The position numbers and the translations under genes were made by a program. DNA of 59,683 nt, counting the filler, from Squatina squatina (lineage: Eukaryota): the NCBI GenBank assembly GCA_031763465.1. It is 4 parts of 4 records of this genome, joined end to end, with 100 filler letters (N's around TTAATTAATTAA, not from the genome) between each part and the next. Parts side by side here need not be neighbours in the genome. Positions count along the whole stretch, not along the records: positions 26,101 to 46,211 come from JARFOE010000005.1; 3 more parts are not named here. One strand, 5' to 3'. This document shows, piece by piece, positions 36,723-37,832 of the stretch; position 1 is the first letter of the stretch, and each line of letters begins with the position of its first letter. The notes under the pieces were generated by a model. That model saw nothing but the letters and a program-made list of their open reading frames with translations, was not told the origin of the DNA and searched no databases.

Positions 36723-37832
36723 TTACATTTTGGTTTCATTTACTTCATTGAGCTGGAATACAGGGTTGTCATAAGCTTACTTTTCCTTGAGCTTCGCCTC
36801 CTTCTCAGTCTGCAGACAGTAGGCACAGTGCGGAGTGTCCACCTGCACAGTCTTACCAAAGTTGGAGAAATCAACTCTGTATTTCCCTTCTTTAGTTTTG
36901 GAGACAATGGGGGCGACCCTGTAGCCCCAGAATACCTCGTCTGGGATGTAAGAGGTTCTCACCTGGCAAGTGGCACTGGTGGCTTCTATTGTGCCATCCA
37001 AGAAGACCACTAACTCAAAGTCTTGTTGGTTGATGGTCTCAGCTGACATCTCATAAAAGGGGCTGGTTTTATCAATGATGTGATAGATAGTCAGAGGAGA
37101 TATGAAGAACAGATTCTCATTCCCAGCATCAACAACAAAATCTATGTTGACTTGGTCCATTATGATGGTCTCACCCTCTAGGGTCACGGTGGTTTTCAAA
37201 AGTTTTCCATAAATATGGCTGCCAATCAGAAGACTTTTCCTGAGGTTGGCTACTCGGATGAGGAGGCACAGTTTGCCCCCACGGTTGCTGATGACAGCGC
37301 TCTTGCTGAAGGTGATGGTTTTGGCTCGTTTCGTTGGCCTGGAGATCTTGGCCAGGATGGCCCCACACANNNNNNNNNNNNNNNNNNNNNNNNNNNNNNN
37401 NNNNNNNNNNNNNNNNNNNNNNNNNNNNNNNNNNNNNNNNNNNNNNNNNNNNNNNNNNNNNNNNNNNNNNNNNNNNNNNNNNNNNNNNNNNNNNNNNNNN
37501 NNNNNNNNNNNNNNNNNNNNNNNNNNNNNNNNNNNNNNNNNNNNNNNNNNNNNNNNNNNNNNNNNNNNNNNNNNNNNNNNNNNNNNNNNNNNNNNNNNNN
37601 NNNNNNNNNNNNNNNNNNNNNNNNNNNNNNNNNNNNNNNNNNNNNNNNNNNNNNNNNNNNNNNNNNNNNNNNNNNNNNNNNNNNNNNNNNNNNNNNNNNN
37701 NNNNNNNNNNNNNNNNNNNNNNNNNNNNNNNNNNNNNNNNNNNNNNNNNNNNNNNNNNNNAACAAGTCGAGCTCTCCTGCGATTGCGCTCTGTTAGGTTT
37801 CTGGTGAATCTCCTGCGGAGGTATTTGAACAT
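36723..37832 (-). CDS. KCNJ1: Kir1.1/ROMK-like inward-rectifier K+ channel main exon; TM/pore region lies in a 391-N gap; in-frame TAA at 36777-36779 precedes the ancestral stop at 36723-36725
   Basis: [67 protein letters not shown] and [11 protein letters not shown] are ROMK-specific. After the stop the frame continues [18 protein letters not shown] close paralogue cannot be excluded. Confidence 0.88.

Follow-up and report, generated by a model that had tools for sequence, protein, structure and literature searches.

The genome assembly of the shark Squatina squatina (GCA_031763465.1) raises the question of whether this animal makes a ROMK channel without its trafficking tail. In the sequence-only reading that prompted this analysis, the extreme tail of mammalian ROMK is given as binding PDZ scaffolds; the tail lies outside solved structures. 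In mammals, the YxNPxF motif binds ARH and brings ROMK to clathrin pits, under WNK control (PMC10695394, PMC7463639, PMC9496095). In the whole stretch of DNA that we analysed (the window, 59,683 nucleotides with filler), the minus strand carries a ROMK/KCNJ1 gene that runs from an ATG at 37832 to a natural stop at 36725-36723, which makes 370 codons or 369 amino acids, as in most shark orthologues. A second, in-frame stop lies 18 residues before the end. The features of the locus are as follows, with human ROMK columns assigned by alignment to a primate ROMK and by the N375 numbering of PMC10695394.

37761..37832, minus strand: start of ROMK/KCNJ1, ATG and codons 1-24, aligned with the N-terminus of 21 chondrichthyan orthologues
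37370..37760, no strand: run of 391 N hiding codons 25-154 (TM1, the pore and most of TM2), with the frame and the 369-amino-acid length preserved
36780..37369, minus strand: visible coding sequence for the end of TM2 and the cytoplasmic domain, codons 155/156-351, from translation, homology and alignment
37333, minus strand: private A>C, K167T (human K186 column, RPKKR motif), K in 21/21 chondrichthyan rows
37284, minus strand: private A>C, K183N (human K202 column), K in 21/21 rows and the other base in three runs
36917, minus strand: private T>G, F306V (human F325 column, WGYRF), F in 21/21 chondrichthyan and 8/8 other rows
36896, minus strand: private T>A, S313T (human T332 column), conservative, T in 6/8 non-chondrichthyan rows
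36777..36779, minus strand: in-frame TAA at codon 352 (human R371 column), AAA (Lys) in relatives
36775..36780, minus strand: donor-like GTAAGC, made by the stop-creating base, with no sign of use
36756..36773, minus strand: YDNPVF, a YxNPxF-type endocytosis motif past the stop, from translation and alignment
36723..36776, minus strand: undecayed 17-codon tail and natural TAA, the protein being that of the Pristiophorus, Scyliorhinus and Heterodontus tails

The gene is an ordinary shark ROMK. The best matches of its visible C-terminal part are chondrichthyan Kir1.1 proteins with the IRK Pfam pair (PF01007 and PF17655), at 89-95% identity (95% to shark ROMK), which bears out the identification made in the sequence-only reading. 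A single copy was found: a search of the genome gave one match at 94% and a next best of at most 56%, DNA and protein searches of the assembly returned no second copy and no contig of a second haplotype, and no other pieces of the assembly were found to cover the part hidden by the N run. On the plus strand the gene is adjoined by Kir3-type exons (38682-38999 and 40026-40181), probably of KCNJ5, judging by the human KCNJ1-KCNJ5 pairing. These exons read PKN where GIRK2 has PKK, and the other Kir3 gene reads PNK. A 32-bp minisatellite of about 10 copies (36281-36603) begins 120 bases past the ROMK stop codon, and the relatives' contigs at ROMK run on into a similar repeat.

The TAA at 36779-36777 replaces K352 and removes 18 residues, 17 of them after the stop, including YDNPVF; as assembled, a YxNPxF-type motif is encoded but stands outside the translated product. 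The minus strand had been written out correctly in the sequence-only reading, and the stop, in frame in the translation, is not a chance effect of reading frame. A search for sequencing runs of this species listed none; four relatives' runs were compared at ROMK, of which two span the stop (X5 had nothing on ROMK and X16 fell short of the stop). The two spanning contigs (X6, X11) have T at plus-strand position 36779, that is AAA for lysine, which supports the proposed AAA>TAA change. The tail through to ETKM is kept in 21/21 chondrichthyan orthologues. In this set each species is represented by a single row, an unnamed skate-like protein is added, and extra isoforms are excluded, including two Stegostoma models whose ends differ. 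The stop is thus common to neither of the two spanning relatives and to 0/21 chondrichthyan proteins, and the claim that the change is recent or private stands, as does the claim that the clipped part contains a YxNPxF-type motif.

That reading had also called the lost residues conserved, and the motif proves to be less universal than this suggests. The pattern [YF]xNPx[FY] occurs in 12/12 shark species and the chimaera, and in 0/8 batoid rows. Of the first 51 database matches 33 have it, whereas the following 69, whose named members are ray-finned fishes, all lack it. In the batoid ROMKs (P0004, P0131, P0134, P0135, P0141, P0142, P0145 and P0146) the proline and phenylalanine of the motif are lost, leaving YDNL or YDNV, and in the stingrays Hemitrygon and Hypanus the tyrosine has gone as well, with a three-residue deletion. 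The motif was apparently lost at the root of the batoids. Judging from these proteins, the YxNPxF motif is labile, and the lineages without it have kept a TKM-like end. Motif loss in rays and skates is a firmer lead than the stop, being independent of this assembly. In the literature searched we found no paper on ROMK/KCNJ1 in cartilaginous fishes, which is weak evidence of absence from print. A few database ROMK models have replaced C-termini, namely P0022 (the duck Aix galericulata, where the switch falls just before YDNP) and P0129 and P0143 (Stegostoma), and these ends are probably products of annotation.

If the stop is real, it leaves 351 residues (370 in ROMK1 numbering), and since it lies in the last coding exon, the mRNA is predicted to escape nonsense-mediated decay. 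One might speculate that the stop is a selected allele that sheds the ARH/clathrin signal and places more ROMK at the apical surface. In mammals the motif does serve as a signal for endocytosis (PMC10695394, PMC7463639), rays and skates manage without it, and the cut falls beyond the part that gating needs, rat residues 332-351. The rat truncations 361X and 366X of Kir1.1a gate like the wild type, with wild-type open probability and conductance, but their whole-cell current in oocytes is lower (Flagg et al. 1999, PMC2230538). This lower current argues against a simple gain, and it makes the endocytosis-resistant allele, one of three interpretations offered from the sequence, doubtful. Moreover, the accompanying K167T and F306V strike conserved residues of the core, the lineages without the motif lost it by substitution and retained the end of the tail, and there is no second sample. 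We therefore regard selected loss of the tail as very unlikely. That the stop is both real and fixed, whatever its cause, is a broader proposition to which we give little credence. The only ROMK of this shark would then be without the clathrin/ARH tail through a nonsense change, as the ROMKs of rays and skates are through substitution, and cartilaginous fishes would provide two independent cases in nature for testing life without WNK/ARH-controlled retrieval of ROMK. It would be a natural deletion of the ROMK tail in a fish that retains urea, with a bearing on how far ARH/clathrin control is needed outside mammals.

The base that creates the stop also creates the GT of GTAAGC, because the relatives read GA there. 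The donor-like AAA|GTAAGC pointed out from the sequence is present, and one may ask whether, the base being real, it acts as a new 5' splice site, from which codon 351 would be spliced onto an exon further downstream and the protein would gain a different tail. The hexamer fits the 5' splice donor consensus at five of its six positions, and the bird protein P0022 has its tail replaced at the same point, although this is probably a gene-model product. Splice use, however, would require the base to be real in the first place. Between this point and the following gap, a span of 517 nt, no acceptor-like site with a polypyrimidine stretch was found; the window contains AGTAAG 24 times, and the motif is common by chance; and the relatives are without the GT. 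We find this account hardly credible.

The stop is not the only private change in the gene. Four more, K167T, K183N, F306V and S313T, fall within 650 coding bases at columns that are invariant in the 21 chondrichthyan rows. These, in the same 1.1-kb contig, and the background of similar changes across the assembly had been missed in the sequence-only reading. Changes at such invariant columns number 0-2 for each of 20 elasmobranchs and 10 in the distant chimaera. The phenylalanine of the F306 column is also present in at least 97% of 115 bony-vertebrate matches; no passage on F325 of ROMK was found in the literature searched. All five changes, the stop included, are transversions of A/T origin (A>C, T>G, T>A or A>T) and none is a transition. 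Calculated over the possible non-synonymous changes of ROMK, and for a class defined after seeing the data, the chance of five out of five is 0.009 if all rates are equal and falls to 0.001 if transitions are three times as frequent (kappa 3). A sixth change, E298D (A>C), is common to 7/21 rows and was left uncounted. Among the differences listed (40 of 50 rows, against relatives), 9/10 of the private ones in the 3' UTR and 4/5 of the private synonymous ones are transitions.

The stop and these additional changes could be real, with ROMK under relaxed selection or in early pseudogenisation, or with one damaged haplotype in this animal, and K167T and F306V would then further impair a channel already without its tail. 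Only one ROMK copy was found. Radical transversions are in excess in ROMK (5/189) compared with four other Kir stretches (4/822, P = 0.014), from which it follows that this is either an unusually poor contig or a case of real relaxation. K186 belongs to the gating network of Kir1.1, and K186A, a mutation of that network, is reported to have a small effect on kinetics (PMC4594414). Yet private changes as a whole are not enriched in ROMK (5/189 versus 13/822, P = 0.36), and neutral change should consist mostly of transitions, whereas the chance of seeing none in five is 0.02 at kappa 3. There is no frameshift or other indel in the visible part of the gene (130 codons are hidden), the tail past the stop is undecayed, and close relatives are intact. 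In the visible part, ROMK thus has neither the transition-rich neutral spectrum nor the indels expected of a unitary pseudogene, and real decay seems to us unlikely.

Lesions of the same types are present in unrelated conserved genes of the assembly. A single-exon receptor, which we take to be of the muscarinic type, has a private TTA>TAA in its third intracellular loop in an otherwise open frame (L027:564-566), the same private T/A swap as in the ROMK stop. The sense codon TTA (Leu) stands at this position in all three covering runs, which come from two organisms (run X17 had no contig at the receptor). Among the 150 GPCR matches listed, 11 hold stops; all 11 were inspected, and two are lone point stops in otherwise open frames; both rank within the top 50 matches, a set of 13,047 codons. 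The other nine were set aside, each being explained by a break in the frame, a mis-join, an intron, the edge of a gap or what is probably a TAAR-type pseudogene. Protein identities in the assembly point to a squalomorph-like shark, with Kir4.2 at 98% to that of the sawshark. Compared with shark orthologues, Kir4.2 has a Q>P, Kir2.2 an A>D and a Kir2-like gene an F>V, the last of these at the same WG.RF column as the F306V of ROMK. Comparison with human or mouse structures shows F>V in Kv4.2, N>I in Kv3.1, K>Q in a Hox1 and K>T in Gbx, and a Hox3 gene has N>T relative to two paralogues. Two Kir2.2 differences from chicken, C>S and H>Q, were rejected as lesions, not being private among sharks. 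One of the four homeodomain matches with a stop was inspected and proved to be an intron, and three apparent connexin frameshifts were rejected since all span N gaps.

Other irregularities of the assembly were met in the course of this survey. Several genes appear to combine paralogous sequences into chimeras. The middle of one Kv4 gene is that of a Kv1, some GPCRs change over to another receptor, and some homeodomains have last residues that resemble another class (L040, L034, L036, L037; L085, L094, L095, L098, L102), the class labels being our own assignments. This suggests gap filling across similar genes. A Hox1-type homeodomain (L107, C100:9237050-9237350) reads WLQNM where 44/45 have F at position 49, and may be a divergent paralogue or contain further errors.

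How heavy this background is can be put in numbers. Where at least 97% of bony-vertebrate matches share the residue of a column, the assembly departs at 3/490 and reference genomes at 15/7,547, a difference that is not significant (P = 0.09). Pooled private changes amount to 17 per 1,000 in the assembly and to 0-6 in most references, with 15, 21 (Narcine) and 32 (Heptranchias) in three long-branch species. The background of lesions in the assembly is modest. The sequence context NT[TG] surrounds 9/9 of the T>G/A>C cases, against an expected 60% (P = 0.01), the nine having been picked by eye, six of them with an inferred ancestral base, and a V>G in Kir6.1 that lies outside this context having been excluded as not shown to be private. 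An artefact of two-colour Illumina (NovaSeq) sequencing is described as T>G/A>C in NT[TG] with a secondary excess of T>A (PMC13218037); an older T>G bias was noted with, as reported there, no clear dye signature (PMC8002175). The two-colour artefact is said to be negligible for germline calls at normal depth (PMC13218037), and it would therefore matter here only if depth were very low. False premature stops are a described class of error in short-read assemblies (Kim et al. 2022, PMC9516821).

We therefore propose, with a probability that we put at roughly three in four, that the ROMK TAA is not a new channel variant but a consensus base-call error at low depth, which was another of the three interpretations offered beforehand. 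We favour an error because the stop is private, because it stands together with four private transversions of A/T origin in 650 bases, and because like changes occur in unrelated conserved genes. The proposal is supported by the visible frame, free of indels and with its tail intact, and by the state of the assembly, which consists of 1.15 million contigs, has a median gap-free run of 974 bases in the window, and breaks the ROMK exon with a gap. The wrong base at codon 352 would come from a contig with thin read coverage, in an assembly that is fragmented and built from short reads; depth there was presumably low, so that a repeated miscall of the T>G/A>C and T>A kinds could win the consensus. 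The animal would then make a normal 369-residue channel with its endocytosis motif. Against an error stand the excess of radical transversions in ROMK, the lack of a significant difference at the deeply conserved columns and the equally high private-change rates of the long-branch references. The ROMK stop is, moreover, itself a T>A, not of the main T>G class, and lone stops are rare in the assembly, with none in 28 connexin matches and none in the other Kir exons. If the stop is an error, caution is due with lone stops and radical changes throughout this assembly: without reads they should not be taken for biology, least of all where T>G/A>C or T>A changes lie in short contigs.

The short-read assemblies of Kim et al. 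2022 (PMC9516821) and the two-colour artefact of PMC13218037 resemble the present case in their stops, in Ns that interrupt coding sequence, in false SNPs where depth is low, and in T>G/A>C changes in NT[TG] with secondary T>A; those errors were proven with reads, whereas here they are proposed from the assembly sequence. The rat truncations 361X and 366X, like the cut seen here, leave the 332-351 gating domain in place and remove the YxNPxF motif, but they were engineered, and about four more residues would remain in the shark channel (PMC2230538). The nearest comparison is with the ROMK/Kir1.1 of other sharks (Pristiophorus japonicus, Carcharodon carcharias and Heterodontus francisci), to which the gene is identical at 229/237 visible residues, with an equal length of 369 amino acids and an equal tail. 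It differs from them in K352*, K167T, K183N, F306V and S313T, which are found in 0/21 chondrichthyan rows.
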